Of a stretch of 64,000 nt of DNA, positions 10,303 to 54,125 are shown piece after piece. Made by a program: the position numbers and the translations under genes. How positions within the stretch are numbered: the first letter of the stretch is position 1; each line of letters begins with the position of its first letter. Source of the stretch: a virus; the IMG/VR virus record IMGVR_UViG_3300025012_000056; one strand, 5' to 3'. The notes below the pieces were generated by a model. That model had not been told where the DNA came from, ran no database searches, and saw only the letters and a list, made by a program, of their open reading frames with translations.

Positions 10303-10968
10303 ATGAAAACAATTTATTTAAGAGACGAACAGTATAATTGGAAAGAACATGAATATGAAGTTCTTTCTGATTTGAAGAAAGAGTTTGAGAGACTTAATAT
10401 AGAAGTGGGTGAAGGGGCAAAAGTGGGTGAAGGGGCAAAAGTGGGTGAAGGGGCAAAAGTAGGCACACGGGCAGAAGTGGGCGCATGGGCAGAAGTGGGC
10501 GCATGGGCAGAAGTAGGTGAAGGGGCAAAAGTAGGCACACGGGCAAAAGTAGGCACACGGGCAGAAGTGGGTGCATGGGCAAAAGTGGGTGCATGGGCAG
10601 AAGTGGGTGAAGGGGCAAAAGTAGGTGAAGGGGCAAAAGTAGGCACACGGGCAAAAGTAGGCACACGGGCAGAAGTGGGTGCATGGGCAGAAGTAGGTGA
10701 AGGGGCAAAAGTAGACACACGGGCAAAAGTAGGAATTGCTAATGCGATGTTCGCTTTAAATTTATATAAATATGCAACATCAGCATATATGGGAAAAGAT
10801 GGTGAAGAAATGATTCAATTAGGCTGTTGTCTTCGTACTCGCCAAGAATGGGACGCTGATTTTTGGAATAACCCTAATGAATTCACAAATCCGGAGGTGC
10901 CAGAATCAAAAGCCAGAATGAATGCATTTAAGGTCGCTTGTTTCTTTCTTGATTCTTTAAAGTCGTAA
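10303..10968 (+). CDS. Hexapeptide-repeat (left-handed beta-helix) protein
   Basis: 18 tandem [K/E]VG(EG/TR/AW)A-type units flanked by unique N- and C-terminal domains. Confidence 0.8.
   Translation: MKTIYLRDEQYNWKEHEYEVLSDLKKEFERLNIEVGEGAKVGEGAKVGEGAKVGTRAEVGAWAEVGAWAEVGEGAKVGTRAKVGTRAEVGAWAKVGAWAEVGEGAKVGEGAKVGTRAKVGTRAEVGAWAEVGEGAKVDTRAKVGIANAMFALNLYKYATSAYMGKDGEEMIQLGCCLRTRQEWDADFWNNPNEFTNPEVPESKARMNAFKVACFFLDSLKS
10402..10734 (+). repeat. 18-bp coding tandem repeat, 18 full units plus a partial one
   Basis: Units such as aaagtgggtgaaggggca, aaagtaggcacacgggca, gaagtgggcgcatgggca read directly. Confidence 0.95.
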
Positions 10969-11060
10969 ACATTTTCACAAAAACAAAGTTATAATAATTC
11001 AAACAAACAATTAAATACAAATTAGAACCTTATGGTGTAAAGGTCAACCACATTAAAAAT

Positions 11061-28842: not shown

Positions 28843-29670
28843 ATGAAAACAGTTCTCCCATTATCTAACAAACTTCACGACTTTCATAAAGTTAATCTTA
28901 TTACAGATAAGAATGTGAGAAATTGGTATCGCTGCAATAAATGTGGTCTTTCTGGTTATCGTCCAGGTTTGTCTGATAAAATAATTATTGATGGGACTGA
29001 AAAACAAATAAGAAATTGCAGCGGACAACGGAATTTACAAGTAGAGTACATTAAATACATTAAGACCTTCAAGACACAAGTTGTAAAAATTGTTACGCCA
29101 ATAGCAATAATGGGTTGTGAGAATTTAGGGTTATATACAGAACACAATACCGTCCCTTGTCCCTTCAAACATTTTAGTAATCAAAAGATTGGGGAGATTT
29201 GGTTGAGAAATAAGAAAAAACTTCCTTGCAGACTTTGGAATCATGAATATAGATTGGTTGAGAATGGCGAGGATCAGAAAGGTAAAGAGATGGCCGAGAA
29301 TAAAACTCAATCTAAAGTCAATAAAGTATCCATTAACTTAAAGTTACAAACAAGAATAATGGTGCGAGTTGCCGAGTTTTTGACGGAGAAGTTTTTTATT
29401 GAGGGATTAGACATTTCATCAGGATTTAAAGATGAAAGTTGGACTTTATATTGCAATAATATGTTTCTTGTAACAGGAAAGAAGTTTAATTTGTGGAATA
29501 AAGTGTTGGTGAAGAAATACAGTAAATTTGTCTCTTGGAAGATGCAGTATTTGCATGATATCACAAAAGCGGTATTGAAAGAGGATCATAAAGTGTTATT
29601 TGTTAGTTCTATCAGTAAGATCAAAGGAACAATAGTCACTCAAATAATAACAAATGAAAACAAAAGTTGA
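28843..29670 (+). CDS. Hypothetical protein
   Basis: 275 aa with a CNKC motif. Confidence 0.55.
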   Translation: MKTVLPLSNKLHDFHKVNLITDKNVRNWYRCNKCGLSGYRPGLSDKIIIDGTEKQIRNCSGQRNLQVEYIKYIKTFKTQVVKIVTPIAIMGCENLGLYTEHNTVPCPFKHFSNQKIGEIWLRNKKKLPCRLWNHEYRLVENGEDQKGKEMAENKTQSKVNKVSINLKLQTRIMVRVAEFLTEKFFIEGLDISSGFKDESWTLYCNNMFLVTGKKFNLWNKVLVKKYSKFVSWKMQYLHDITKAVLKEDHKVLFVSSISKIKGTIVTQIITNENKS

Positions 29671-30229
29671 TCGTAGTGGTCTTTTTGTATTATTGTTAAT
29701 TATTTCTATAATTTCAATAGTATTTCTCGTAAGAGGGAATTGGATTCTTCCAATTCGAGATCAAAAAGAAAGGTTTATTGAGGATACTATTGGATTAAAT
29801 AAGATCATTAAGGAGAAACAACGAGAAATTGATAGTCTTAAACATTTTGGTGATAGTTTGAGGTGTTTGACTGTGAGAAACAAATATGAAATAGCATATA
29901 GTTTTTCTGATCGAGAAATAAAGACTGTACTGAGATTGTCTAAGAAATTGCAAATTCCCGAGCATATTTGTTTTAATTTGATAAAAAGGGAGAGTTGTTA
30001 CGATTCCACAGTCCTCTCAGCTGAGGGATGCTTAGGATATTTACAATTGAATCCAAGATATTTTGCATTTGAAAACAGTGAAGATAATTTGAAGAAGGGA
30101 TTTTGTTTTTTAAGAAAACAATATGATAAATTGGGTTCTTGGGAAGAAGCATTGATTTATTATAATTCAGGAGAAAAACATTATAGAAACAATAGATATA
30201 TTGATTATATTTTACACAATAATGAATAA
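29654..30229 (+). CDS. Membrane-anchored lytic transglycosylase (SLT family)
   Basis: N-terminal hydrophobic helix; catalytic LIKRES, GCLGYLQL, YYNSG. Confidence 0.78.
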   Translation: MKTKVDRSGLFVLLLIISIISIVFLVRGNWILPIRDQKERFIEDTIGLNKIIKEKQREIDSLKHFGDSLRCLTVRNKYEIAYSFSDREIKTVLRLSKKLQIPEHICFNLIKRESCYDSTVLSAEGCLGYLQLNPRYFAFENSEDNLKKGFCFLRKQYDKLGSWEEALIYYNSGEKHYRNNRYIDYILHNNE

Positions 30230-30749
30230 TTTTGAAGAACATTTGTTTAAGTTGGTTAAAGAGTTTTACACTCTTAAACAAACCAAGCTAAATTTTGAAA
30301 AATATTTTCAAGAAAGATTGAAGATTTTTGTTAAGAATGGCTTCAAGGATTTTTACAATCTTTTAATGACTTCTTCAATAGAAGAATTTGATTTAAAGTA
30401 TAAACAATGGGAGTCAAATTTATTAAAAAATATGGTTTTTGAAGGAAATATGACTTTGGAATCTTTATTATGTGTTTGCGTTAATGTTAGAGAGGATGTA
30501 ACCATACAAGAAATAAAAGGAAAAAGTAGAAGAAGGGATTTCGCTGATGTGAGATTTGTTTATTATAAAATAGCTAAGAAATTTAATGTATCTACAAATC
30601 AAAATATAGCTGGATATATTAATAGAAACCACACGATAGTGACTTATGGTTGTAAAAAATGTGATGATTATATAGAAACCAATGAAAAATTTAGGGAATA
30701 TTTTAATAAATGTTTTGCAGTATTTTCAGATAAAGCAAGACAAGATTGA
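30222..30749 (+). CDS. Protein with a DnaA C-terminal-like HTH domain
   Basis: IKGKSRRRDFADVRFVYYKIAKK...IAGYINRNHTIVTYGCKK matches the DnaA domain IV pattern. Confidence 0.7.
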   Translation: MNNFEEHLFKLVKEFYTLKQTKLNFEKYFQERLKIFVKNGFKDFYNLLMTSSIEEFDLKYKQWESNLLKNMVFEGNMTLESLLCVCVNVREDVTIQEIKGKSRRRDFADVRFVYYKIAKKFNVSTNQNIAGYINRNHTIVTYGCKKCDDYIETNEKFREYFNKCFAVFSDKARQD

Positions 30750-32325: not shown

Positions 32326-32607
32326 ATGAAAACTTTAAAGAAAGTACCCTTAGAACTTGTGGAAGTAAAATTTATTCCACCGCATAATGAAATGGAGTTT
32401 GGTAAACTATACTATTCCAAAGAGTATGAAACAACAAATCATTTATGTCCGTGCGGGTGTGGGATGCAATCTCCGATACCTGTTAACGATGTAGGATGGC
32501 ATTTGACAATTAACGACAATAAAGTAACTATCAGTCCATCTATATTACATCGAATGGGTTGTCAATCCCATTACATAATTACTAACGGTATCGCTAATAT
32601 TGTATGA
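32326..32607 (+). CDS. DUF6527-like metal-binding protein
   Basis: HLCPCGCG...W...SPSI...GCQSHY pattern. Confidence 0.7.
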   Translation: MKTLKKVPLELVEVKFIPPHNEMEFGKLYYSKEYETTNHLCPCGCGMQSPIPVNDVGWHLTINDNKVTISPSILHRMGCQSHYIITNGIANIV

Positions 32608-32608
32608 A

Positions 32609-33157
32609 ATGAATGAAAAAGTTATTTTTAAACAAATTGGAGTAATTGACTTTATTGATTTAACCAAAAACAGAATCAATGAAGTTGCTGATTTGATTAT
32701 ATCAACCTATAAGGATGAAAAGATATGGTCAAATTTTACAATAGGACAAATGGAGGAAGAATTACTGGCCTCTTTCAAAAATATTTTATACAAACCCTCA
32801 TTTTTCATTGCTTTATCAAATAATAAGGTAGTTGGCGTGGGTAGTTATATGTGTTCTCATATTTCAATGCAAGCATACGAATTATCATTTGGTACGGTTC
32901 ATAAAGATTATCAAAAAAAGGGGATAGGTACATTTTTGATTTATTTACGTTTGAGGGAAATTATAAAAGAACGCACGGATGCCGTTATATTTGCTCGTTG
33001 TAGAAAACCCGAAATGTTCCAAAAATTTGGTTTTAGGTTTATTAAAAAATATTTAGGGAAAAGTTCTGCCGGAAGTGAATATTTATATTGCCCAGCCGAA
33101 GAAATAACTTTTTCATTTCTTAGTCCTTCATGTCAAAAATTCACGCTTAATAGATAA
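32609..33157 (+). CDS. GNAT-family acetyltransferase
   Basis: VHKDYQKKGIGT acetyl-CoA loop, FQKFGF. Confidence 0.8.
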   Translation: MNEKVIFKQIGVIDFIDLTKNRINEVADLIISTYKDEKIWSNFTIGQMEEELLASFKNILYKPSFFIALSNNKVVGVGSYMCSHISMQAYELSFGTVHKDYQKKGIGTFLIYLRLREIIKERTDAVIFARCRKPEMFQKFGFRFIKKYLGKSSAGSEYLYCPAEEITFSFLSPSCQKFTLNR

Positions 33158-39327: not shown

Positions 39328-41052
39328 ATGCCTAAGTTTACAAAGAAACCAAAAGATGGTGTAGGAAGTGCATTAGACGTTCCATATCATATACCAAACA
39401 TTCCACATGTAGAGACACTTCCAAAGATCACAGAGACTTATAAGATTGTAGAGACCATAATAGACAATTTAGACGATGAGGCTTTATCTCAGCTTTGTTC
39501 GGGGACTGAGGAAGACATTGATAAGTTATTTGGGGTACTTACTGACGAAACGTACAAAATGTTGTTCGGCAAAGGAGGAATAGTGCGAGAAAGCACATTT
39601 CTTTATTTAGATAAACTCACAAAGAGTGTCGAAGAAACATTTAGAATTGAGAGTTTGAACTACTTTATTGCGAGTGCTCTCCCTGACTTTGAGATTAATT
39701 GGCACCATTTAGAGTGGGGCGAGATTGTGATGCATTATCTAAAATTTAGTATTTTGGCTGCGAGGGATCACGGGAAGTCATTCTTCTTCAGTAATGCACT
39801 CCCTATTTGGAAGATGTACCGTGCGAAACCATATAGCGAAATGTTGGGATACAGGAGGAAAGACTTGTCTCTATGTTTGACTGGCTATATCATTACAAAC
39901 GAAATGGGATTAGGAGTAGACCTGTTAGAGATTGTTAAAGGAACAATTGAAAGTAGTCCTTCCATTAGAGACAGGCTGATGCCTGAAAATAAGAACGATG
40001 GTTGGGGAGCAGAAAGAATTAAGTGTAGGAATGGTAGCAGATTAAGTGTTAAGAGCTATGGGAGTTCCTTCAGAGGAAGACATCCTGGATATATAATAGT
40101 GGACGATTTTTTGAAAGATAACATTATTTACAGCGATATCCAAAGACGAAAGAGCAACGACTATTTCCATGCTGTTATAATGAATGCAATTGTTCCAGGA
40201 GGACAAGTCCCGGTTGTAGGAACACCGTTCCATGAATTAGACTTGTATGGAGATCTCAAGACAAAGAAGGGTTGGTTGGTTTTAGAATATCCTGCTATAT
40301 TTCCAGATGGCAGAGTCTTATGGCCGAGCAGATATACCTTTAAAGACCTTATCAATAAAAAAGAAGAACAAGGAAATCTTATATTTTCCAGGGAGTCCTT
40401 GGTGAGACCAATCATGAGCGATAGTTCGTTGTTTCCGTTTGAGTTGATAAAGAGAGCATATGCGGGGATGGAAAATTATACGTTGGTTAATAATGTTGAA
40501 GCGTTTCCTGTTAAGTTCGAGCATATTGTAGTGGGTTGTGATTTTGCGATTAGTGCGAATGTGGGTGCGGACTTTAGTGTTTTCACTGTTTGGGGAATCA
40601 CAGAACAACAAGAGATGTGGCTAATTCACTTTTATAGAGCCAAAGGGAGAACATATGGGGAACAAATAGCAGTTTTGGCGAGCATTAATGCTAATTTCAG
40701 GCCAACTCTCTTTTATGTAGAGTCCAATCAAATGCAATTAATATTCGGACAAGGTATGGGAGATTTGGGCTTACCGATTATTACAGAAGCAACAGGAGCG
40801 AACAAATATGATTTAAAGAAAGGTGTTCCGAGCTTGGTCTTGTTGTTTGAAAGAAATAAGATTAAATTTCCCAGAGGAGACAAATATAGTCGTGAAATGA
40901 CTGATATAATGGCTGCAGAGTTTGCCGCTATGACTTGGACTGAAAAAGGATTAGAAGGAGTGGGAGCCCATGACGATACAGTTATGTCTACTTGGCAAGG
41001 AGAGAAAGGTATGGGGAATGTAAACTTTGGGTTTGATTTTGTAATGGCTTAG
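39328..41052 (+). CDS. terL: Terminase large subunit
   Basis: Walker A AARDHGKS, Walker B IIVDDF, VVGTP coupling motif, nuclease VVGCDFA and GAHDDTVM. Confidence 0.92.
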   Translation: MPKFTKKPKDGVGSALDVPYHIPNIPHVETLPKITETYKIVETIIDNLDDEALSQLCSGTEEDIDKLFGVLTDETYKMLFGKGGIVRESTFLYLDKLTKSVEETFRIESLNYFIASALPDFEINWHHLEWGEIVMHYLKFSILAARDHGKSFFFSNALPIWKMYRAKPYSEMLGYRRKDLSLCLTGYIITNEMGLGVDLLEIVKGTIESSPSIRDRLMPENKNDGWGAERIKCRNGSRLSVKSYGSSFRGRHPGYIIVDDFLKDNIIYSDIQRRKSNDYFHAVIMNAIVPGGQVPVVGTPFHELDLYGDLKTKKGWLVLEYPAIFPDGRVLWPSRYTFKDLINKKEEQGNLIFSRESLVRPIMSDSSLFPFELIKRAYAGMENYTLVNNVEAFPVKFEHIVVGCDFAISANVGADFSVFTVWGITEQQEMWLIHFYRAKGRTYGEQIAVLASINANFRPTLFYVESNQMQLIFGQGMGDLGLPIITEATGANKYDLKKGVPSLVLLFERNKIKFPRGDKYSREMTDIMAAEFAAMTWTEKGLEGVGAHDDTVMSTWQGEKGMGNVNFGFDFVMA

Positions 41053-41073
41053 AACAAAGTTAATAAAAGAAAA

Positions 41074-42768: not shown

Positions 42769-43074
42769 ATGGCAACAACAAGTTCAGAAGCAGTTTACAC
42801 TTTCAGAAAAGGTGTAGGAGATCATAAAATAACAATTAAGGCATTTCAAAGTGGCGATAAGAATATCATTGTAGCCACAATAAAGGCTGAATCGGTGGGA
42901 GTAGCTGACGGCGATCTTCAATTAACGATGGAAAACACCTTTAAGCTGGGGAGTAACATTACCGAGCAATCCTTAACAGATTGGGCGGACACAGAGGGTT
43001 ATCATCTTAATAGAGCTGTAGGAGATACAGACGATGTTCTGTTTGACCCAGCAGCATCAGTCAGTGTTTCTTAA
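42769..43074 (+). CDS. Small beta-rich, possibly structural protein
   Basis: 101 aa preceded by an A-rich leader. Confidence 0.55.
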   Translation: MATTSSEAVYTFRKGVGDHKITIKAFQSGDKNIIVATIKAESVGVADGDLQLTMENTFKLGSNITEQSLTDWADTEGYHLNRAVGDTDDVLFDPAASVSVS

Positions 43075-43139
43075 TTAAGTTGAATTAACGACAGACGTTG
43101 AAAGACGTCTTTCTTTTATTTTATAAAAACAAGAAGACT

Positions 43140-43721
43140 ATGAATCGTTCAACAATTATCAATTCTCTTATAAAGAAAAATGGCTACAAGAGCTATTTAG
43201 AGATTGGGTGTCAAAACAATCGTAATTTCAATGTTATTGTTTGTAAAAAGAAGACAGGCGTTGATCCTGTTAAGGGAGGGACAGTTACACTACCAAGTGA
43301 TATCTTTTTCAGAGGAGCGATAAAAGGAAAAGAAAAATTTGATATCATCTTTATTGATGGGGATCACACGAAAGAGCAAGTGGCGAAGGATATTAAAAAT
43401 TCTTTGTCGTGTTTGAGCCCAGGCGGGACGATTGTGGTTCATGATTTGAATCCATCAACATTTGAAATGCAAGCAGTTCCAAGGATTCAGAAGGCATGGA
43501 CAGGAAATGGTTGGGAAGCTTGGGTTAAAATGAGAATGGAAAACAAAAATCTTTTGATGTGCTGTTTTGAGGGAGATTATGGTGTAGGTATTATTCAGAA
43601 GGGAAGTCAGGATCTTCTCATTGCAAAGAGCGCAATCAACTTTAATAATTTTGTAAAGAACAAGAAAAAATGGATGAATATGATTTCTTGGGAAGAAGTC
43701 CAGGAGATCTTTTTTAAGTAA
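43140..43721 (+). CDS. Class I SAM-dependent methyltransferase (Methyltransf_24-like)
   Basis: YLEIGC, FDIIFIDGDH, GGTIVVHD. Confidence 0.85.
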   Translation: MNRSTIINSLIKKNGYKSYLEIGCQNNRNFNVIVCKKKTGVDPVKGGTVTLPSDIFFRGAIKGKEKFDIIFIDGDHTKEQVAKDIKNSLSCLSPGGTIVVHDLNPSTFEMQAVPRIQKAWTGNGWEAWVKMRMENKNLLMCCFEGDYGVGIIQKGSQDLLIAKSAINFNNFVKNKKKWMNMISWEEVQEIFFK

Positions 43722-43729
43722 ATGAAATT

Positions 43730-44425
43730 GTGAATAAGGATATTGTTGTCTTTAGTTGTATATTCGGAAATTATGATACCTTAAAAGAACCTCTGTATGT
43801 AAATACAGGGGTCTCTTTTGTTCTTTTTACAGATAATCCAAACATAAAGAGTAATACTTGGAAGATTATTTTAGTTGATTTAAAGTATTTGGGAGGGGAT
43901 CCTCAAAGAGTAGCCAGAAGGATCAAAACAAATCCACATTTGTTTCTTCAAAAGAACCATAAAATAAGCGTTTGGGTTGATTCCAATTACCATATCAGGA
44001 TTAGAGATATCAAGAATTTTTGCAATTTATCTTTAACAAATAATGATGTGGCGATGTATAAGCATCCAAGGAGAAATTGTTTATATAAGGAAATTGATAC
44101 TTGTATTAATTCAAAATTAGATAAACCAGAAATCTTGTTAGCTCAAAAGAATAAGTATTTGAAGGTAAAATTCCCGTGCGAGAATGGTTTATATCATACT
44201 GCTGTAGTTATTCGTAGAAATAATACGAAAGTCAATAAGATAAATGAAGAGTGGTGGGAGGAAATAAAGAGATTCAGTCGAAGAGATCAAATTTCTTTAC
44301 CTTATATATTTTGGAGAAACGGTATAGTTCCAAATATTGTTCCATCTGAATTTGGAGAGACGTTATATAGAACAGATTATTTTTTCAGATTTAAGCATAA
44401 TCGTCAAAGAACTCGGTATGAATAA
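43730..44425 (+). CDS. DUF616/MUCI70-like glycosyltransferase
   Basis: CIFGNYDTL, SVWVDSN, HPRRNCLYKE, RDQISLPY. Confidence 0.8.
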   Translation: MNKDIVVFSCIFGNYDTLKEPLYVNTGVSFVLFTDNPNIKSNTWKIILVDLKYLGGDPQRVARRIKTNPHLFLQKNHKISVWVDSNYHIRIRDIKNFCNLSLTNNDVAMYKHPRRNCLYKEIDTCINSKLDKPEILLAQKNKYLKVKFPCENGLYHTAVVIRRNNTKVNKINEEWWEEIKRFSRRDQISLPYIFWRNGIVPNIVPSEFGETLYRTDYFFRFKHNRQRTRYE

Positions 44426-45263
44426 GCGAGGAGTCGTAGTCAAAGAAATGAAACCTGTTTTTGGGCCAATAGCGGATGCCATAAAGAAGACAGGAATAGA
44501 TATGATGGACTTTTCTGAGGTTGAAAAAATCAAGGATTATGATTATTTGATTGTGTTTTACAATAAGTTATTCCCAGCATTAGAGACAAGGGCAAAAGTG
44601 GGATGGTGGATGAATGATTTGAATTCTCCAAGTAAAGTCGGAACAGGAATTAATTGGGGATTTGATTATATATTTCTTTGTAACATGGAATTCTTTGAGA
44701 GTTATAAGCAAGTGTTTGAGAGACCAGTATTTTATATGCCGCAATGCGGATTAGATAGTGATAATATTAGTTGCAGAGATATTAATTGGGAAGTTTTATT
44801 TATTGGAAGTGTCGCTCCACATAGATATAGAAATAATAGGAAAGAAATATTAGAAGGGATTGGAAAATCATTTTTTCTTAAAGTTATTAGTGAGGAACGA
44901 ACCTCTGTGGATCAAAACATACTCTATAGAAACACGAAATATAATTTAAGCATTAGTTCACCATTAAATACAACAACGAGTAATCGTTTGTTTAATATAT
45001 TGGCTTCTGGTGGATTCGCATTGGTATCGTATTTCCCAGGATTAGAGAAATTGTTTAAGAATCATCAACATTTAGTGTGGTTTAAGAAGTCAAAAGAAGC
45101 AATAAGGTGGATAAATTATTATGATAACAATCCTATTAAATACAGTAGAATTAAGAGATTAGGACATTTGCAATATTTGGAGAAACATACTGCTAAACAT
45201 AGATTGGAGAATATGTTTGATATAATGGAAGGAAAAGAAACTAAATTTAGAGGATGGTTATGA
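44418..45263 (+). CDS. CgeB-like GT-B glycosyltransferase
   Basis: VLFIGS...YRN.R, RLFNILASGGF, GLEKLF...HLVWF. Confidence 0.75.
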   Translation: MNKRGVVVKEMKPVFGPIADAIKKTGIDMMDFSEVEKIKDYDYLIVFYNKLFPALETRAKVGWWMNDLNSPSKVGTGINWGFDYIFLCNMEFFESYKQVFERPVFYMPQCGLDSDNISCRDINWEVLFIGSVAPHRYRNNRKEILEGIGKSFFLKVISEERTSVDQNILYRNTKYNLSISSPLNTTTSNRLFNILASGGFALVSYFPGLEKLFKNHQHLVWFKKSKEAIRWINYYDNNPIKYSRIKRLGHLQYLEKHTAKHRLENMFDIMEGKETKFRGWL

Positions 45264-46018
45264 GAGATATAACATTATTATTTTATCCAGAACCACTCAA
45301 GAAAGTTCCTCTTTCAAGAGTGTATAGAATATGTAAAGAATATGGGATTAATTTTCATAATGATTCTAAACTACCATATGATTTACATATATTTTGGAGT
45401 TACACAAAATGTAGAATTATTCCAGATGGATTTACTTTAAATGCAAAAGATTGTATAAATAAGGGGTGTTGGGATGTTGGGAAGGAGAGAGTTAATGATA
45501 TTTTTAATGATATTAGAATTGATCCTACAATATTTAAAGGAATTTGTGTTGAGAAATTGGATCTTCAAGGTCGTCATGGCAGTCATCATTTGATAGAATG
45601 TCCTGCGAAGGAAAGAGAGGGATATATTTATCAGAAATATATTGAAAATAAGGAAGGAGATTTGTTTTACAAATATAGAATATATTATGCAGATGGTATA
45701 AATTATATTCTTAAAAGTTATAAGCCAAATCCTTTTGGGTCTGAATGTGTGAGACATGAGTTGATAGATAAAAATCAATTGTTTACAATAGAACAAGAAC
45801 AAGATTTTCATAAGAAGTGTAAAGAGTTTGGTTTTGATTTTGGGGAAATTGATGCTATGGTAGATAAAGGCAAGCTGATAATTATAGATGTTAATAATGT
45901 AGTTGGAGGAGGATTTGTTTGGGGATTAACTGGGACGCAATTACATAAAGATATTGATTATACATTCATTAAGTTTTTGGAGAAGAGGATAAATGATAAG
46001 ACAAGCGAGATTTGCTAA
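45260..46018 (+). CDS. ATP-grasp-like protein
   Basis: YIYQKYI and FDFGEIDAM...IIIDVNN resemble the ATP-grasp C-terminal metal-binding motif. Confidence 0.55.
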   Translation: MRDITLLFYPEPLKKVPLSRVYRICKEYGINFHNDSKLPYDLHIFWSYTKCRIIPDGFTLNAKDCINKGCWDVGKERVNDIFNDIRIDPTIFKGICVEKLDLQGRHGSHHLIECPAKEREGYIYQKYIENKEGDLFYKYRIYYADGINYILKSYKPNPFGSECVRHELIDKNQLFTIEQEQDFHKKCKEFGFDFGEIDAMVDKGKLIIIDVNNVVGGGFVWGLTGTQLHKDIDYTFIKFLEKRINDKTSEIC

Positions 46019-46724
46019 ATCAATAAGGTTTTTTAAGGAAGGATTTTTGAATCGTTGGGGATTAACTGATTATTCTAATAATCAAGAATCATGCATATTT
46101 GTAGGAATATATCGTTCAGAAGATGTTGATGTTGTTAATAATCATAAAGGATTTAAGTTAATTTGGAATACAGGAAGAATTAGAGATTGTTTTAAAAATA
46201 TTGATCCCATTAATGTTGTTGTAATGGAAAATACTATAGATTGTGAGTTAATAAAGGGATTGTATAAAATAAAGCGTGCGAACATTGAAATAAAGGATTT
46301 CTCTTTGTTTAAACTGAGTGAGTTGGGGAATAAGGTTTATTGCTATTTAGGCAATGCGAAGGGAAAATTTGTAATGGGTTTTGATTTAATGAAAGAAGTT
46401 GAAAAAGAAATTAAATATGAGATAATACAAGGATTTCAGGGAAACACTATAGAATTTGTTAGAGATAATATTTATAATGAATGTTTTGTAAATTTGAAAC
46501 CAAATTTGACTGGAGGAATTACATCAGCGGTGGAATTAGCATTAATGGGAAGAAGGACAATTTCAAATACAATTGCTCCCTTTTGTATGGGATATAAAAG
46601 TGTTGAGGATATTGTGCGAATCATTAATGAGGAAAGTAAAAAAATTGGGATTATACAAGCATCAAAATTAGGAAATTATTTTGATACAGGAGAAGAGTGG
46701 AGAGAAGAAAAATTTTGGTTATGA
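45993..46724 (+). CDS. Putative GT-B-like glycosyltransferase
   Basis: YNECFVNLKP...GGITSAVELALMGRRTI resembles a GT-B nucleotide-binding segment. Confidence 0.5.
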   Translation: MIRQARFAKSIRFFKEGFLNRWGLTDYSNNQESCIFVGIYRSEDVDVVNNHKGFKLIWNTGRIRDCFKNIDPINVVVMENTIDCELIKGLYKIKRANIEIKDFSLFKLSELGNKVYCYLGNAKGKFVMGFDLMKEVEKEIKYEIIQGFQGNTIEFVRDNIYNECFVNLKPNLTGGITSAVELALMGRRTISNTIAPFCMGYKSVEDIVRIINEESKKIGIIQASKLGNYFDTGEEWREEKFWL

Positions 46725-47350
46725 AAAGAAGAAATATTATCAATGATTTAATTGTTAAACTCAATTTTGAAAATTATCTTGAATTGGGGATAAGGACAAA
46801 AGAGACATTCAATAGCGTTATTTGTAAAAATAGAATGTCTGTTGATTGTGAAAATAAGTGGGAACCAACTTACTGTTATACAATTGATGATTTCTTTAAA
46901 TTGTTAGATGGGGGATTTTTAGATATTGATAAGAATTATAAATGGGATTTGATTTTTATTGATGCTTGTCATAAAGCAGAATATGTGTATAGAGATACAT
47001 TGAATTCTGTAAGACATTTGAATGATAAGGGAATATTGGTCTTGCATGATGTATTTCCAGTTAAATGGGAATTTACAATAGAGGATGATCAGAACGGAAC
47101 AGCTTGGAAGGTTGTTCCTTATATTTTGAAATATCATCCTGAATTAAATGTTTGCGTTATTCCAGAGAGAAATGGCGGATGTGGAATAGTTACTAAAAAT
47201 TTAGGAAAGTTAAGAGAGAATTGTTTAGATAAGGATTTTAATGTGTTTTATGATTTTTATTTAATGGATGTGAATAGAAAAAAATCGCAAAATATAATTG
47301 TATATTCTGATTTGATTGATTGGATTAAACAACCTTATTATAATAAATGA
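46721..47350 (+). CDS. Methyltransf_24-like methyltransferase, paralog of the 43140 gene
   Basis: YLELGI, WDLIFIDACH, GILVLHD, NGTAWK. Confidence 0.82.
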   Translation: MKRRNIINDLIVKLNFENYLELGIRTKETFNSVICKNRMSVDCENKWEPTYCYTIDDFFKLLDGGFLDIDKNYKWDLIFIDACHKAEYVYRDTLNSVRHLNDKGILVLHDVFPVKWEFTIEDDQNGTAWKVVPYILKYHPELNVCVIPERNGGCGIVTKNLGKLRENCLDKDFNVFYDFYLMDVNRKKSQNIIVYSDLIDWIKQPYYNK

Positions 47351-47351
47351 T

Positions 47352-47948
47352 ATGGCAATCATTAAGTTTATCAAAGATAAAGAAGAACAAATTCTAACTG
47401 AATTAGGATTTCAATATAATGGTTTGAGATTGTGTGAATTGGGAAATCAGAGTTTTGGTGAGAGACCAGCTAAATTAATGTATGGTTTATTGGGTGCCTA
47501 TCATGTATCAATAGATATTAATGGGAGAGATGGAGCATTTCCATTTAATTTATCAGAAGAGTTACCAGAATATATGGGAGGACATTTTAATGTAATTACA
47601 AATTATAGTACAACGGAACATGTTAGCAGTCAAATTGAGGTGTTTAAGAATATTCATAATCTTTGTAGAGTTGGGGGAATAATGATTCATGGAGTTCCTC
47701 TTATAAATAATTGGGCGGGACACGGGAGATATTATTATACATTAGAATTTTTCAATAAATTAGCGAATTTTAATGGGTATAAAATTTATGTTTTAGAGAT
47801 TTTAGATAAGGATTTTTATGCGGCTCCAAAGAATTTAGTCTATTCAGTGTTAATTAAAGAAGTAAATAATGATTTTAAAGGTTTTGATTTTAAAGATATA
47901 TTTGATTCTGGCAATGTAAGTCGTACGCAAAATTATGCTAAAAGATGA
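47352..47948 (+). CDS. SAM-dependent methyltransferase-like protein
   Basis: LCELGNQ, SIDING, FNVITNYSTTEHV, GGIMIH. Confidence 0.7.
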   Translation: MAIIKFIKDKEEQILTELGFQYNGLRLCELGNQSFGERPAKLMYGLLGAYHVSIDINGRDGAFPFNLSEELPEYMGGHFNVITNYSTTEHVSSQIEVFKNIHNLCRVGGIMIHGVPLINNWAGHGRYYYTLEFFNKLANFNGYKIYVLEILDKDFYAAPKNLVYSVLIKEVNNDFKGFDFKDIFDSGNVSRTQNYAKR

Positions 47949-48718
47949 AAGACTTTGTAAAAGAATATTGGGATAAAAATGCTCAAAAATTTGGTGGTTC
48001 TCATTGGGCTTCCTGGGGCGACAATTTTATGATAGAATTGGAGATTGATATTATTGCAAAGTATCTTAAGGACGGAGATTATGTTTTAGATGTAGGTTGC
48101 GGTAATGGTTATTCAACATTTGAGCAAGTTAAGAGACATAGTCTTTCTATTGAGGGAATTGATTATTCTTTGTTTATGATTAAGGAAGCCATTAAAAAAA
48201 GAAATGAAATAAAAAAGGAAAGAACTATATTATTCTTTGAGGGAGATGTTAGGAAACTTGACTATAAGGATGAATTGTTTGATAAGACATATGTTACGAG
48301 AGTATTGATTAATCTTCAAACTTGGGAAGAACAAATTCAAGGAATTAAAGAATGTCTTAGGGTCACTAAACCAGGAGGAACAATCATTCTTTTAGAAGCA
48401 TTTTGGGAACCTCTTCAAAAATTGAATGCAATAAGATTAATTTGTGGTCTTCAACCTTTAGTGGAACATGATTTTAATAGATATTTGAAAGAATCAAAGT
48501 TAATAGAATTTTTAGAGAGGGAAGGGATTAAATATAAAAAAGAAGAATTTAGTTCAGTTTATTACTTTGGAAGTCGTGTGTTAAGAGAACTTGTCACTGA
48601 TTTTAAATCATTTGAAGGTTATGATAATCCAATAAATGAGGAGTTTTGTAAATTAGCAAAGAAATATAATGGCGGGGGAGTTGGAATTCAAATTGCATAT
48701 ATACTTTATAAATTATGA
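47945..48718 (+). CDS. Class I SAM-dependent methyltransferase
   Basis: VLDVGCGNG, GIDYS, EGDV, LRVTKPGG. Confidence 0.9.
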   Translation: MKDFVKEYWDKNAQKFGGSHWASWGDNFMIELEIDIIAKYLKDGDYVLDVGCGNGYSTFEQVKRHSLSIEGIDYSLFMIKEAIKKRNEIKKERTILFFEGDVRKLDYKDELFDKTYVTRVLINLQTWEEQIQGIKECLRVTKPGGTIILLEAFWEPLQKLNAIRLICGLQPLVEHDFNRYLKESKLIEFLEREGIKYKKEEFSSVYYFGSRVLRELVTDFKSFEGYDNPINEEFCKLAKKYNGGGVGIQIAYILYKL

Positions 48719-49353
48719 GACATAATCCATACAAAATAGTTCAAATGTTTGAAGAAGAGATAGCAAATTATACTGGCGCTCCCTATGCGGTATCTGTAGA
48801 CAGTTGTACTAATGCATTATTCCTTTGTTGTAGATTTTTAAATGTTAAATGGGTTACAATACCAAGTAAGACATATCTTTCAGTTCCGCAATCTATTATG
48901 CACGCTGGGGGAAGTGTTATTTTTGATAAAAGAGAAATAACAAATAATTGGAAGGGAATATACCAATTGTTACCATATGGTATATGGGATGCTGCTAAGA
49001 GATTTACATTTAATATGTATTCTCAAAATACTGCACCGGGAGACTTTATGTGTTTATCATTTCATATGAAAAAGCATTTGAAGATAGGCAAAGGGGGTAT
49101 GATTCTTACAGATAACGAGAAAGCTGTTGCGTGGTTTAAGAAGGCGAGATACGAAGGAAGAAGTCAAAAGATGTATCATGAAGATGATATTGATATGTTA
49201 GGATGGAATATGTATATGACTCCTCAACAAGCAGCTCATGGTTTAGCATTAATGCAAAATATTGAAAAATATAATGATGACTTGGGTGAAAACAATGGTT
49301 ATAGAGATCTTACAGAATTTACAATATTTAAAAATAATCAAACAATCGAATGA
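48715..49353 (+). CDS. DegT/DnrJ/EryC1/StrS-like PLP sugar aminotransferase, short form
   Basis: AVSVDSCTNAL, IWDAA, SFHMKKHL (PLP lysine), GKGGMILTD. Confidence 0.8.
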   Translation: MRHNPYKIVQMFEEEIANYTGAPYAVSVDSCTNALFLCCRFLNVKWVTIPSKTYLSVPQSIMHAGGSVIFDKREITNNWKGIYQLLPYGIWDAAKRFTFNMYSQNTAPGDFMCLSFHMKKHLKIGKGGMILTDNEKAVAWFKKARYEGRSQKMYHEDDIDMLGWNMYMTPQQAAHGLALMQNIEKYNDDLGENNGYRDLTEFTIFKNNQTIE

Positions 49354-50093
49354 TTGAATTAACAGTTGCTCTTCCATTATTTAATAGCGGAAAAATCGCT
49401 TGGTTGGCATTAGAGGGATTATGCAATCAGAGAGATATTGATTTTGAATGGGAATTAGTGATTGCGGAAGAACAAAATGATTTAATGTTTGGAAAAGAGG
49501 GGATTTTAGAATATAAAGAAAGATTGGAGAGGATTGGATGTGTAAATATAACATATTTATATTTAATAAGGTGGATTTCTTTGGGAGAGAAATGGAGATT
49601 GATAGCGATTAATACTAATGCAAATTCAAAAGCATTTCTTTTACAGGCTTCTGATTGTTATTCTCAACCATTTAGATTAAAGGCAGTATATCAAGCGATT
49701 GTTAAGAGTGATTTTGATTGGTATAAAAGTAATCAGGGATTATTTTATCATTTAAAAACAAAGAAAAATATTTTGTTTAGTGATGTAGAGAACATACAAA
49801 GAGGTGGATTAAATATGGCCACATTGACAAAATATGTTAAAAATTTACCATTAGAACAAAGAAGAGCAGTGGTCGATGGTTGGTTATATAAGTATTGTAA
49901 TCCCAAAAAGGTTTTTGTAGATATAGCGGATTATTGGGAATTGGGGGTTGATACTCATGGATTAAACCAAATTTCCTTAAAAAGAGATAAGTTTTTTAGG
50001 AATCCCACATTTCCGTTTGTAGAAACAGAATTAAATTGTAGAACATTATTGCCAGAATATATAATTCAGAAGTTTGATGATTTATTATTTTAA
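49350..50093 (+). CDS. GT-A (GT2-like) glycosyltransferase
   Basis: LTVALPLFN, WELVIAEE, FLLQASDC in place of DxD. Confidence 0.6.
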   Translation: MIELTVALPLFNSGKIAWLALEGLCNQRDIDFEWELVIAEEQNDLMFGKEGILEYKERLERIGCVNITYLYLIRWISLGEKWRLIAINTNANSKAFLLQASDCYSQPFRLKAVYQAIVKSDFDWYKSNQGLFYHLKTKKNILFSDVENIQRGGLNMATLTKYVKNLPLEQRRAVVDGWLYKYCNPKKVFVDIADYWELGVDTHGLNQISLKRDKFFRNPTFPFVETELNCRTLLPEYIIQKFDDLLF

Positions 50094-50610
50094 GCCATTT
50101 GATTTGGACAAGAAGTTGGGGCGAGCATATAATGAATATATGCGAATGCTTCCAAGTGATGAAGATTGGGGTTGTCTTTTAGATGGTGATACTATGTTCC
50201 TTACAGAGGATTATGGAAAACAAATTCAAGAAATTGTAATGATGTACCCAAATACAGGGTTATTTACTTGTTTAACAAATAGGGTTGGTAGAAGGCAACA
50301 ATGTTATAAAGGAGTTATGTCGGAGAATTGGGATATCAAACATCATTATCAAATCGCTCAAGAGGTTCAAAAATTTGCTCGTCACAACGTGTCTGAGATA
50401 CATACTATAATCAGTGGGCACTTATTATTAGTTAAAAAAAAAACATGGCGAGAAGTAGGAGGATTTGTTGAGGAAGGCATTTTAAAAGTAGATAATAAAT
50501 TTAGTTGGGGGATTTTACAAGCGAGGAAGAAGATACTAATAATGAATGGCGTTTATATTTTTCACCGTTACAGAATTAATGGAATTAAATTTAGAGAACA
50601 TTTAAAATGA
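50077..50610 (+). CDS. GT-A (GT2-like) glycosyltransferase
   Basis: LGRAYN, CLLDGD (DxD), SGHLLLV, GGFVE. Confidence 0.7.
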   Translation: MIYYFKPFDLDKKLGRAYNEYMRMLPSDEDWGCLLDGDTMFLTEDYGKQIQEIVMMYPNTGLFTCLTNRVGRRQQCYKGVMSENWDIKHHYQIAQEVQKFARHNVSEIHTIISGHLLLVKKKTWREVGGFVEEGILKVDNKFSWGILQARKKILIMNGVYIFHRYRINGIKFREHLK

Positions 50611-50787
50611 GTATAGATCGTACAATATTGTATATAGTCAAGCCATGAATGCGGTTTTTCGATTGGGAGAATATTTGAATAGGTTGATAAATAGTGAAGA
50701 AAGTAAGAAGACAATGAGTGAGGAAAAATTTAATAAAATAAGAGAATCTTTAGAATTGTCTAAGAAGATAATGAATAATTTAAAGTA

Positions 50788-51525
50788 ATGCAAGAAATTG
50801 ATGTTGTATATCCGGTTGGTATTGGGAGCATCTGGAAAGACAATGAAATGCGTTATTCCTTGAGGAGTTTGGAAAAGAACTTGATAGGATTAAGAAATGT
50901 ATTTATTGTCGGCCATCTCCCTCAGTTCATTCAAAGAGTTATTCACATTCCAGCAGCGGATATATACAGAGAGAACAAAGATGCAAATTTAATAATGAAG
51001 ATTTTGATGGCTTGTGATCATCCATCTTTATCAGAAAATTTTGTAAGACTCAGTGATGATCAATTAGTTTTGAAACCAATTTGTGAGGAATGTTTTGAGA
51101 ATTGGTGGTATGAGGATTTAAAAGATAGACATTTTGGTCGTTTAAATAATTGGGGAAAGAGACTTAAGAATACTTATAATTTGTTAAAACAACAAGGTCT
51201 CCCAACAAAGAATTATGATTCACACATTCCAATGATTTATAATAAGAAGAGTTTTGTAGATATAATGAATCGTTATCCTTGGAATAAAGATGGAAGCGGG
51301 GAAGGATTTACAATAAATACATTATATTTTAATAATATTTATAAAGGCGAGAGAGTCAAAGAAGGAATAAGATTTAATGTTGAAACACCATTAGATAAAG
51401 CCACTCTTCAGCGAGGATTTGAAAAAAATATGTTTTTAGGATATGATGAAAGAGGAAGAAATAATGAGTTGGAAGAAGTAATTCAAGAGGCGTTTCTTCA
51501 AAAAAGCAAATATGAAATTGATTAA
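50788..51525 (+). CDS. Stealth-like hexose-1-phosphate transferase
   Basis: IDVVY (CR1-like), EMRYSLRSLEKN...NVFIV (CR2-like), FVRLSDD, HIPM. Confidence 0.7.
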   Translation: MQEIDVVYPVGIGSIWKDNEMRYSLRSLEKNLIGLRNVFIVGHLPQFIQRVIHIPAADIYRENKDANLIMKILMACDHPSLSENFVRLSDDQLVLKPICEECFENWWYEDLKDRHFGRLNNWGKRLKNTYNLLKQQGLPTKNYDSHIPMIYNKKSFVDIMNRYPWNKDGSGEGFTINTLYFNNIYKGERVKEGIRFNVETPLDKATLQRGFEKNMFLGYDERGRNNELEEVIQEAFLQKSKYEID

Positions 51526-51779
51526 ACACAGTTATTATATATAATTGGATAAATGGAAAAGTTCTTTGAGTTCAACATTGATAATAAATAAGTGTAAAAA
51601 AAATCCTGATAAAACAATTGAAAAGGTTGTTAAACAGGTAAAACAATTCTTGTAGTCGTATAGTGTCTTTTGTAATTGTTGGGATTATAATGCGCATAAT
51701 CAAGTGATCGCGCATACCAGTCGCTTCGGTAACTGCAGAACCCGTGGCTAATACAATAAACCGTCCATCCCGATGTTGA

Positions 51780-51896
51780 ATGAAAAGAACTTTAAATTTG
51801 GCTTTGTTTGTTTCCTTAATAGTTTGCTCATGGTTAGTAGGTTGTTCGGAAGATGCCCAGAAAATGGGGCATTTTTCATTGGTTCTAATATGTTAA
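51780..51896 (+). pseudogene. 38-codon lipoprotein-signal ORF: micro-lipoprotein or truncated remnant
   Basis: MKRTLNLALFVSLIVCSWLVG-CSEDAQK followed by an early TAA. Confidence 0.35.
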
Positions 51897-51927
51897 TTTA
51901 CAGTGTATAATAAAGTATTTTGGTGAT

Positions 51928-51966
51928 GATTTTGAGATTGGAGAAAATAGACCGTAATTAGCTGCA
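51928..51966 (+). promoter_or_regulatory. Second copy of the bipartite promoter motif
   Basis: gattttgagatt-N15-taattagctgca; same spacing as 9543. Confidence 0.55.
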
Positions 51967-51992
51967 TAATTCATTATTAAAACCAAAATAAA

Positions 51993-53468: not shown

Positions 53469-54125
53469 ATGAAAAATTTAATTTTAGTTGCTTTTGCCAT
53501 ATTATTAATGGCGAGTTGTAAAAAAGAAGATGTGTCTCCCGATCCGCAAAATGGGATTGATACAGTTTCTCCAATAATTACAATAATTGGTGATAATCCA
53601 TTAATTGTAAAACAGTTTGATGCTTACAATGATCCTGGAGCGATAGCAATAGATGCTATTGATGGAGAATGTATTGTGGATATTTCAGGACATGTAAATA
53701 TTGATTCTGCAAAGGAATATGTTGTAATTTATTCTGCAAGCGATTTGAGTGGAAATAGCAAAAACATATCAAGAACAGTAATTGTTTCAGGAGCCAAATA
53801 TTTATCAGGAAGTTATATTGTAAGCGATTATCAAAGTGGAATATTAGTAATGTCTTACTATGATTCTATTCGGGGAGATTTAAACAACCATAACAAGATA
53901 TGGTTTAAGAAATTTGCAGGATATCAAAACGCTGTAATATATGGCGACATAGTTGGGAGTAAAATAGCAATACCGTCACAAGTGGTTCTTTGTGGTAGTC
54001 CTCAAATTCAACGAACATTTCAAGGATATGGGTCTTATGTTAAAGATTCAGTTAATTTTAATATAAATTATATAGAAACAACTAATGGGAATTCAACATC
54101 TGGAATATTGAAATTTAAGAAATAA
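53469..54125 (+). CDS. Lipoprotein with DUF5011-like Ig domain
   Basis: Lipobox MAS-CKKED; PIITIIGDNP...YNDPGAIAID...YSASDLSGN. Confidence 0.8.
   Translation: MKNLILVAFAILLMASCKKEDVSPDPQNGIDTVSPIITIIGDNPLIVKQFDAYNDPGAIAIDAIDGECIVDISGHVNIDSAKEYVVIYSASDLSGNSKNISRTVIVSGAKYLSGSYIVSDYQSGILVMSYYDSIRGDLNNHNKIWFKKFAGYQNAVIYGDIVGSKIAIPSQVVLCGSPQIQRTFQGYGSYVKDSVNFNINYIETTNGNSTSGILKFKK

Follow-up and report, generated by a model that had tools for sequence, protein, structure and literature searches.

A horizontally acquired glycan-assembly island beside the terminase gene of a groundwater phage, with a serine-tailed protein as candidate acceptor

Giant-virus gene clusters combine soluble glycosyltransferases with sugar methyltransferases and an aminotransferase of the DegT type, and yield methylated amino-sugar glycans for the virion in the cytoplasm. 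Accounts of this autonomous glycosylation cover the capsid glycans of chlorovirus PBCV-1 and the fibril glycan clusters of Mimivirus (PMC4691112, PMC9614988, PMC10117803). Among phages, virion glycosylation is presented in one account as demonstrated only in mycobacteriophages (PMC12619734), with virion O-glycosylation of Che8, Corndog and Myrna credited to Freeman et al. 2023 (as cited in PMC12619734 and PMC12801897). Here we describe an island of glycan-assembly genes at positions 42769-51525 of a 64,000-nucleotide stretch of viral DNA (IMG/VR record IMGVR_UViG_3300025012_000056), the whole of which is referred to as the window. We estimate the probability that this island glycosylates a phage protein, namely one of the virion, at roughly 0.5.

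As in the mycobacteriophages, soluble phage glycosyltransferases are encoded in or beside the structural genes, and assembly would be cytoplasmic and without export. The two systems differ in host (Actinomycetota there, probably Bacteroidota for the window phage) and in scale, with 2-4 genes in the mycobacteriophages compared with 12 predicted enzymes in the window. Unlike the window island, the mycobacteriophage operons as described contain no Stealth, DegT or ATP-grasp gene. Their acceptors are capsid and tail-tube proteins, whereas the candidate in the window is a separate ~100-aa protein, termed o101, and the capsid protein has no special tail. The giant-virus clusters have a comparable set of soluble enzymes, but belong to eukaryotic viruses of another realm. 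Multi-gene glycan islands without export genes are common in large phages, and include the 13-gene island in vB_FspM_immuto, a Flavobacterium phage (genes 89-101), those of large T4-like aquatic phages, and that of cyanophage S-SCSM2R with its 13 glycosyltransferases. In all of them, genes for glycosyltransferases, for methyltransferases and for an aminotransferase are clustered and co-oriented. The immuto and T4-like islands carry the same half-size DegT as the window (45% and 75-80% identical, respectively); however, DegT is the only gene in common, and these islands have no mini-Stealth, no o101 and another genome position. The sugar hypermodification of phage DNA (glucosyl-hydroxymethylcytosine in the T-even phages, and the systems of Pyle et al.) likewise places glycosyltransferases near a thymidylate-synthase-type hydroxymethylase and the terminase, but the window island is separable from the hydroxymethyl-pyrimidine machinery, both in relatives and across the Stealth family. 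The distinctive features here are a frame anchored by a miniature Stealth enzyme (mini-Stealth), the Ser-tailed candidate acceptor, an ATP-grasp protein together with four methyltransferases, and a recently imported half-size DegT.

Twelve plus-strand open reading frames fill the interval 43098/43140-51525. In agreement with an initial annotation made from the DNA letters, they form a co-oriented, near gap-free run, with 10 of the 11 junctions being overlaps of 4-28 nt or gaps of at most 8 nt and a single 177-nt gap 5' of the last gene. The island itself begins one gene earlier, at 42769, with o101:

42769-43074, plus strand: o101, ~100 aa, non-enzymatic, Ser-rich C-terminal tail (…FDPAASVSVS); first island gene
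43140-43721, plus strand: MT24a, class I S-adenosylmethionine (SAM) methyltransferase of the Methyltransf_24 family (E 1.7e-10); conserved 5' frame
43730-44425, plus strand: TOD1/MUCI70 (DUF616)-type GT-A glycosyltransferase (E 2.3e-15); conserved 5' frame
44418-45263, plus strand: CgeB-like GT-B glycosyltransferase (Glyco_trans_1_2, E 6.9e-18)
45254-46018, plus strand: RimK-like ATP-grasp amidoligase (ESM Atlas structure match, TM 0.72-0.75); opens the middle cassette
45993-46724, plus strand: compact GT-B (GT4-like) glycosyltransferase (ESM Atlas fold); middle cassette
46697-47350, plus strand: MT24b, Methyltransf_24 (E 5.2e-8); middle cassette
47352-47948, plus strand: probable class I methyltransferase (Methyltransf_23, 23.2 bits, under the cut-off of 27)
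47945-48718, plus strand: Methyltransf_25/11 SAM methyltransferase (E 1.5e-15); middle cassette
48715-49353, plus strand: half-size DegT-type pyridoxal phosphate (PLP) enzyme (PF01041, E 3.3e-24), 212 aa
49350-50093, plus strand: GT2-fold glycosyltransferase (ESM Atlas fold, TM 0.79-0.91)
50074-50610, plus strand: small GT-A glycosyltransferase with a DGD motif (phrog_14179, E 1.8e-33)
50788-51525, plus strand: mini-Stealth, candidate hexose-1-phosphate transferase, 245 aa; last island gene

The island thus encodes four SAM methyltransferases (one of them weak), five glycosyltransferases, an ATP-grasp ligase, a half-size DegT and mini-Stealth, an inventory that the initial annotation had given in similar form and on which Pfam, PHROGs and fold matches agree. 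The weakest of the twelve family calls is the methyltransferase at 47352-47948, for which a TTG at 47316 is a possible start. Hydropathy in 19-residue windows revealed no transmembrane-like segment in the island proteins, except in the spurious N-terminus created by extension to this TTG, and none of the proteins matched Pfam families of the GtrA/GtrB, Wzx, Wzy or ABC exporter type, so that the reported lack of membrane proteins, flippase and polymerase holds. All island enzymes are soluble, and the glycan would therefore be assembled in the cytoplasm, as had also been proposed. The description of the product as an amino-sugar glycan fared less well: it depends on the half-size DegT, and the island contains no dehydratase or N-acetyltransferase. 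No Rfam family matched between 41 and 54.2 kb.

Relatives of o101 are few, forming ~8 clusters (50% clustering) among 1.8 billion proteins. The gene lies immediately 5' of the MT24-TOD1 pair in 6 of 7 contexts, the seventh contig being too short to judge. All members share a conserved YDP followed by a Ser-rich tail (AASVSVS, SASSASF, TSSSSE, ASSSISTP and others). Across the family, Ser accounts for 22 of 56 residues (39%) in the tail, taken as the last 8 residues, compared with 37 of 637 (5.8%) in the body (Fisher p = 1.5e-11, a value that overstates the case as the homologues are non-independent). No match to o101 was found among Pfam, PHROGs, NCBIfam or PDB profiles, and weak matches to giant repeat proteins look compositional. 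Fibronectin-III-like domains are typical of virion decoration proteins, and a marginal match in an island-less relative is a weak o101 homologue fused to a domain of this kind. As a small, non-enzymatic, Ser-tailed protein locked to the glycan island, o101 is the obvious candidate for the acceptor of its glycan. Its tail recalls the C-terminal glycan sites reported, in the account of PMC12619734, for mycobacteriophage capsid and tail-tube subunits.

We also considered a 623-aa DUF5661 protein (L108:10001-11872, equivalent to 69940-71811) as acceptor, and rejected it as Lys/Glu-rich and Ser/Thr-poor. It is encoded 5' of the head protease, is present among the compared genomes only in the island-bearing sister, and is probably a scaffold or internal head protein.

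The product of the last gene is accepted as a stripped-down Stealth enzyme on the strength of its motifs and predicted fold. The match to Pfam Stealth_CR2 (PF11380) scores 32.2 bits, under the gathering score of 39.4, and phmmer aligns the protein with GNPTAB (GlcNAc-1-phosphotransferase) at E 8e-5, matching up the ELRYSLRS, DD and HxP motifs. The CR2 motif reads NEMRYSLRSLE. In an alignment of 15 homologues, its residues E20, L25, R26 and S27 are invariant, as are D5, V7, D90, D91, H146, P148, S240 and E243 of the CR1, DD, CR3 (HxP) and CR4 (SxFE) regions. An AlphaFold2 model (pLDDT 92.9) retrieved Stealth enzymes as all of its top 13 PDB matches (E 5e-12 to 3e-9, TMq 0.57-0.76), led by Mycobacterium tuberculosis CpsY (8j2n) and including GNPTAB structures 9bgf, 7s6n and 7dxi, with human, fish and fly enzymes represented; TMq is 0.67-0.76 for the top CpsY and GNPTAB folds, and the next fold family, GT6, appears from E 1.6e-6. 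The earlier call of a Stealth-like phosphotransferase, sub-threshold in Pfam, is thus borne out by fold and motifs. The fold and all four conserved regions of bacterial and eukaryotic Stealth transferases are kept in this miniature, but it has only 245 aa, lacks a membrane anchor or accessory domains, and falls into a phage-specific clade (phrog_7999, 'unknown function') below the Pfam threshold. In bacteria, Stealth enzymes polymerise capsule or serve as phosphotransferases for capsule or exopolysaccharide, and the putative chemistry of mini-Stealth would be the transfer of sugar-1-phosphate from a UDP-sugar.

Members of the mini-Stealth family occur on at least 162 IMG/VR phage contigs. We inspected the gene neighbourhoods of 80 IMG/VR loci, many of them related to one another; 33 contigs are at least 26 kb long, 23 of which are at least 90% complete. 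The small GT-A (phrog_14179) recurs beside mini-Stealth in 11/80 loci, across lineages. In homologues, the Stealth domain is often fused to GT1/GT4, GT2, GT8, mannosyltransferase, Methyltransf_24, FkbM or GT29 domains, and these fusions make it plausible that Stealth, glycosyltransferase and methyltransferase act in one pathway. Mini-Stealth lies directly 3' of a Pfam-verified capsid gene in L056, L058, L059 and L089 (one lineage), two small genes 3' of one in L032/L033, and one to eight genes 3' of a head protease and putative capsid gene in ~22 loci; with a PF05065 capsid match in only 4 of the 33 contigs, this proximity is descriptive only.

Distant homologues of mini-Stealth were also found in phages of Mycobacterium and other genera. 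In the cluster K Mycobacterium phage Fionnbharth (L225), gp6 (1273-1959; 27% identity, E 1e-8) is annotated as hypothetical and lies just 5' of terS, terL and portal. Others occur in 34 Mycobacterium phage records, in Gaia, and in Gordonia, Streptomyces and Microbacterium phages; none belonged to Che8, Corndog or Myrna among the 40 of 42 matching records listed.

A synteny comparison, named as a possible check in the initial annotation, revealed the same frame layout in island-bearing sisters: terminase, o367, o101, MT24, TOD1, a third glycosyltransferase, a variable middle, small GT-A, mini-Stealth, ligase and hypermodification genes. Between phages, identities of 40-59% are seen for both the 5' frame (o101, MT24a, TOD1) and the 3' frame (small GT-A, Stealth). 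MT24a orthologues (47-55% identical) are found in L003, L226, L228, L229 and L231, and TOD1 orthologues in every island-bearing relative. The third position is less uniform, with the CgeB-like gene 57-59% identical in L003 and L226 and a GT-D-like gene instead in L228 and L229. The GT2 gene lies 5' of the GT-A/Stealth pair in the window and in L003/G001 (52% identical orthologue in L003), and no orthologue was found in L228. The middle cassette holds six genes in the window (ATP-grasp, GT-B, three methyltransferases, DegT), four others in G001 and three in L228; the islands hold 12, 10 and 7 enzyme genes, respectively. An arrangement of ATP-grasp, GT-B and DegT genes like that of the window's middle cassette is present on the unrelated contig L160 at 51-75% identity, where the 53% identical ATP-grasp gene adjoins a GT-B, and GT-B (GT4-like) and short DegT co-occur in 24/80 loci.

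The island was found in a sub-clade of at least five phages. Four relatives (terminase 48-53% identical, genomes 89-100% complete) have no island gene and retain a hypermodification operon, with the gene for a 5-hydroxymethyldeoxyuridine (5-hmdU) DNA kinase, HMUDK, between terminase and portal. The G+C content at third codon positions (GC3) is 0.19-0.28 from TOD1 to mini-Stealth, compared with 0.37 for MT24a and 0.36-0.41 for terminase, portal and ligase. Given the low GC3, the variable middle and the absence from four relatives, the island is an accessory, horizontally assembled mosaic of a stable frame and a swappable cassette, confined to one sub-clade. Such a design is as expected for a glycan under diversifying selection.

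The initial annotation had named a DegT aminotransferase; the family assignment stands, but the enzyme is not of full size. Its 212 aa correspond to the large domain only, with alignments ending at around profile position 242-278 of 360-399, and the C-terminal small domain of the full ~360-400-aa enzymes is absent. The PLP-site residues are kept and invariant in 18 homologues, namely the Asp of the DAAK motif (D92) and the block S115-F116-H117-x-K119-K120, with the Lys of SFHxKK. Sugar aminotransferases are nearest to the AlphaFold2 model (pLDDT 82; TMq 0.6, TMt 0.36), with matches to perosamine synthase, WecE and PseC, and no NCBIfam equivalog cut-off was reached by DegT, all scores being far below. 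The half-size clade numbers more than 4,142 proteins, which share 75-80% identity with the window copy and are carried by large T4-like aquatic phages of 70-360 kb (loci L140, L142, L143, L145-L224). There, the glycan clusters run GlcNAc-transferase-like, GNAT, short DegT, GT25-like and TylF/MT24 fusion. An origin of the short DegT in algal giant viruses, suggested by PolB, GlcNAc-transferase and LCIB-like neighbours, was rejected when five carriers yielded no capsid gene of the nucleocytoplasmic large DNA viruses. T4-type Gp23 capsid protein was above cut-off in 3/5 large carriers, with a weak match in a fourth, and we therefore assign the clade to the T4-like phages. No other gene of the window phage is near 75-80% identity to outside phages, a level of identity that points to very recent transfer of the single gene or of a cassette. 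At ~78% identity between the window phage and large T4-like aquatic phages, the half-size DegT marks a very recent flow of glycan modules between unrelated phage groups.

The window as a whole is a strand-uniform stretch (GC ~33%) from a large, tailed, uncultured groundwater phage, and genes identical to those of the window occur on ~98.5-kb contigs from a groundwater metagenome series. Among the proteins it encodes are a polymerase of the DnaE type, helicases, a recombinase resembling UvsX and a homologue of thymidylate synthase. Its terminase and that of Bacteroides phage DAC19 share 37% identity. A megablast search of the island found no match in cultured phages, and an IMG/VR scan with the terminase as single-protein query gave one weak locus only. 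Features outside the island that bear on its interpretation are:

10303-10968, plus strand: hexapeptide-repeat acyltransferase (Pfam Hexapep, E 6e-18), among the replication genes
39328-41052, plus strand: large terminase (phrog_38, E 7e-55)
41055..41065, plus strand: promoter-like motif CAAAGTTAATA, just 3' of the terminase stop; candidate start of the island's unit
51848-51877, plus strand: terminator-like hairpin, the region's strongest, 11-bp stem with 5 GC pairs; putative function
53469-54125: predicted surface lipoprotein, carrying a lipoprotein-type signal (…LLMASC) as well as a Bact_surface_Ig-like domain
61557-63209, plus strand: portal (phrog_12, E 4e-56)

Terminase, island and portal are co-oriented, and the glycosyltransferase genes share the packaging interval between terminase and portal with ligase and DNA-modification genes. 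The initial annotation had placed the island between terminase and portal; this order is correct, but the portal does not flank the island, as it lies 10 kb past its end. The intervening region contains small open reading frames, the Ig-like-domain lipoprotein and an ATP-dependent DNA ligase, as well as an operon for thymidine hypermodification that comprises HMUDK, a TAGT-like glycosyltransferase (PF20691) and a radical SAM enzyme. The island is followed by a 467-nt gene-less gap (51526-51992) with a locally GC-rich stretch and the terminator-like hairpin. Among the five compared genomes, the acyltransferase at 10303-10968 is present only in the island-bearing sister G001 and is absent from the four island-less relatives; it may be a distal partner that N- or O-acylates the island's amino sugar.

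We propose that the genes at 42769-51525, acquired horizontally and modular in design, form a glycan-assembly island that would work in the cytoplasm of the infected cell on a phage protein. In the pathway we envisage, o101, probably a virion surface or decoration subunit, would present its Ser-rich C-terminal tail as acceptor. Mini-Stealth would move sugar-1-phosphate from a host UDP-sugar, either priming the chain on Ser or adding a phosphodiester-linked sugar later. The five glycosyltransferases would lengthen the chain from host nucleotide sugars, while the half-size DegT may aminate a host 4-keto sugar and the ATP-grasp ligase may join a uronic or amino sugar to an amino acid through an amide bond. 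The four methyltransferases would then O- or N-methylate the glycan. We infer which protein is the acceptor, in what order the steps proceed and what their chemistry is from the gene content and its linkage. Sugar-1-phosphate-Ser linkages to protein occur in Dictyostelium and Leishmania. A more specific version, in which mini-Stealth directly phosphoglycosylates the o101 Ser tail to form sugar-1-phosphate-Ser and the other enzymes build a methylated, amino-acid-tailored phosphoglycan, appears unlikely to us.

The initial annotation had left the target as virion proteins or DNA. A phage protein is the best-supported reading, given o101 at the head of the island and the position of mini-Stealth beside capsid genes elsewhere, but several observations weigh against it. 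It is also conceivable that o101 is a chaperone or adaptor, or simply an unrelated small gene. The major capsid protein itself (L108:13526-15019) was rejected as acceptor: compared with orthologues from five relatives, of which one bears the island and four lack it, it is of equal length and has no island-specific Ser/Thr extension. The nearness of mini-Stealth to head genes is suggestive support for a virion target, limited by the relatedness of many loci. For the largest Stealth lineage, the ~321-aa gene that follows the head protease ('c3') counts as a capsid gene by position only, neither PDB profile search nor hhalign against Pfam-verified capsids confirming it, and in one lineage the mini-Stealth gene adjoins a helicase-DNA methylase. 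Transcription signals are a further point. The motif CAAAGTTAWWA has 38 matches in the window with at most one mismatch (17.7 expected), including exact copies at 10984, 12370, 13710, 36500, 37292, 41055 and 56105. Besides the copy before the island, it occurs 5' of genes of the replication, nucleotide and hypermodification classes, whereas the 20 kb of head/tail genes covered downstream of the portal contain none. It thus marks a gene class comprising replication genes, the island unit and the DNA-modification operon, and excluding structural genes. If it acts as a promoter, its occurrence before replication genes and its absence from the head region mean that strictly late expression of the island is not indicated.

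This motif, common to early or middle genes, would also suit a remodelling of the host envelope, in which the soluble transferases act at the inner face of the inner membrane on lipid-linked O-antigen, capsule or glycoprotein intermediates of the host. Host flippases or exporters would carry the altered glycan out, resulting in superinfection exclusion, a block to progeny adsorption or lysogenic conversion. We regard this as a serious rival, possible although on balance doubtful. The initial annotation had taken the absence of export machinery as an argument against host capsule conversion, and this was overstated. Since most O-antigen and capsule glycosyltransferases that use lipid-linked intermediates are soluble or peripheral enzymes, a lack of membrane genes is compatible with an envelope target, for which host exporters could serve. 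Bacterial Stealth enzymes act in capsule and exopolysaccharide synthesis, and the best fold match of mini-Stealth is CpsY. Large glycosyltransferase clusters of cyanophages are conventionally read as modifying the host cell wall (PMC12801897). The phage also encodes the predicted surface lipoprotein at 53469-54125, and two mini-Stealth contigs are flagged as proviruses, which would fit lysogenic conversion and likewise counts against a virion target. Nevertheless, the island encodes neither a priming phosphoglycosyl transferase nor a flippase, a polymerase or a membrane protein of the Gtr type, and an envelope target leaves the tight linkage to the Ser-tailed o101 unexplained. Mini-Stealth is repeatedly found within head-gene blocks, and a 12-enzyme de novo glycan would be a large investment for a lytic cycle.

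A target in DNA, where the island would extend or decorate a sugar on the 5-hydroxymethyl-dU of the adjoining hypermodification operon, for instance with a Stealth-type enzyme placing sugar-1-phosphate on the hydroxymethyl and the chain then being extended and methylated, is in our view very unlikely. The island lies 4 kb 5' of the operon with HMUDK, the TAGT-like glycosyltransferase and the radical SAM gene, the same arrangement is seen in sister phages L003 and L228, which have ADDT, and a thymidylate-synthase homologue is present in the window. The radical SAM gene and the ligase are shared with the island-bearing sister genome only, and phage glycosyltransferases can attach between one and three sugars to DNA (Pyle et al., bioRxiv 10.1101/2023.12.21.572611). 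However, the operon has its own DNA-type glycosyltransferase (PF20691, TAGT), and the four island-less relatives retain HMUDK. Thymidylate-synthase-family (PF00303), HMUDK (PF18723) and Tet/JBP (PF12851) genes were absent from 31/33 Stealth contigs and from 21 of the 23 that are at least 90% complete; the first two occurred in the sister phage only, and Tet/JBP gave one sub-threshold match. Most Stealth phages therefore have no recognisable hydroxyl acceptor in their DNA, making a DNA target unlikely. HMUDK was within 10 kb of the Stealth gene in just one of the 80 loci, that of the sister phage. The island is in this sense independent of DNA hydroxymethylation, and we know of no DNA glycan of such complexity. 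Indirect evidence comes from immuto, whose DNA contained only dA, dC, dT and fdPreQ1 (formyl-preQ1) by LC-UV-MS/MS (liquid chromatography with UV and tandem mass spectrometry detection; bioRxiv 10.1101/2023.04.13.536721), and thus no glycosylated nucleoside, despite its 13-gene glycan island, although only DegT is common to both islands. Some other soluble target is quite unlikely; the product might then be a glycoconjugate, free or secreted, or the island might modify a non-structural protein of phage or host, with o101 as carrier or scaffold. Such a target would accommodate the lack of detectable similarity between o101 and any virion protein, and ATP-grasp amidoligases, like methyltransferases, are characteristic of small-molecule pathways as well, but the island has no metabolite-pathway precursor, export or resistance genes. 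Its position in the packaging/head region and the capsid-gene neighbourhoods of mini-Stealth point to morphogenesis instead.

Several further genes vary among the compared genomes. The lipoprotein gene at 53469-54125 is window-specific and has a GC3 of 0.17. An SLT lytic transglycosylase, a DnaA C-terminal helix-turn-helix protein and a GNAT acetyltransferase (29654-30229, 30201-30749 and 32600-33157) are likewise window-specific accessory genes. NUMOD3/homing-endonuclease-like genes are scattered among the head genes (63154-64110; L108:9008-9664 and 15022-15870), with their best sister-genome matches at unrelated positions, as expected of mobile endonucleases. Between portal and head protease, L108:5929-9021 (~65.9-69.0 kb equivalent) encodes a 1030-aa protein in which a tudor-like segment is fused to a NUDIX hydrolase and to the catalytic core of a eukaryotic-type topoisomerase IB. 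Orthologues are distributed patchily among relatives, and the protein may be a packaged enzyme.

In mycobacteriophages, virion glycosylation, demonstrated in few phages, shields the particles from antibodies. If Bacteroidota-type and other aquatic phages similarly coat a particle protein, with a methylated phosphoglycan that is variable, this may affect stability, adsorption, aggregation and recognition by hosts or grazers, and the frame-plus-cassette design would be a phage counterpart of O-antigen diversification. The case offers a concrete candidate acceptor together with an uncharacterised phage enzyme family, the 245-aa mini-Stealth of phrog_7999. Should phosphoglycosylation of o101 prove true, o101 would be a dedicated, swappable 'glycan-display' subunit of the virion, and the island would represent the first protein phosphoglycosylation system in bacteria or phages, a widespread one given the presence of the enzyme on at least 162 phage contigs.

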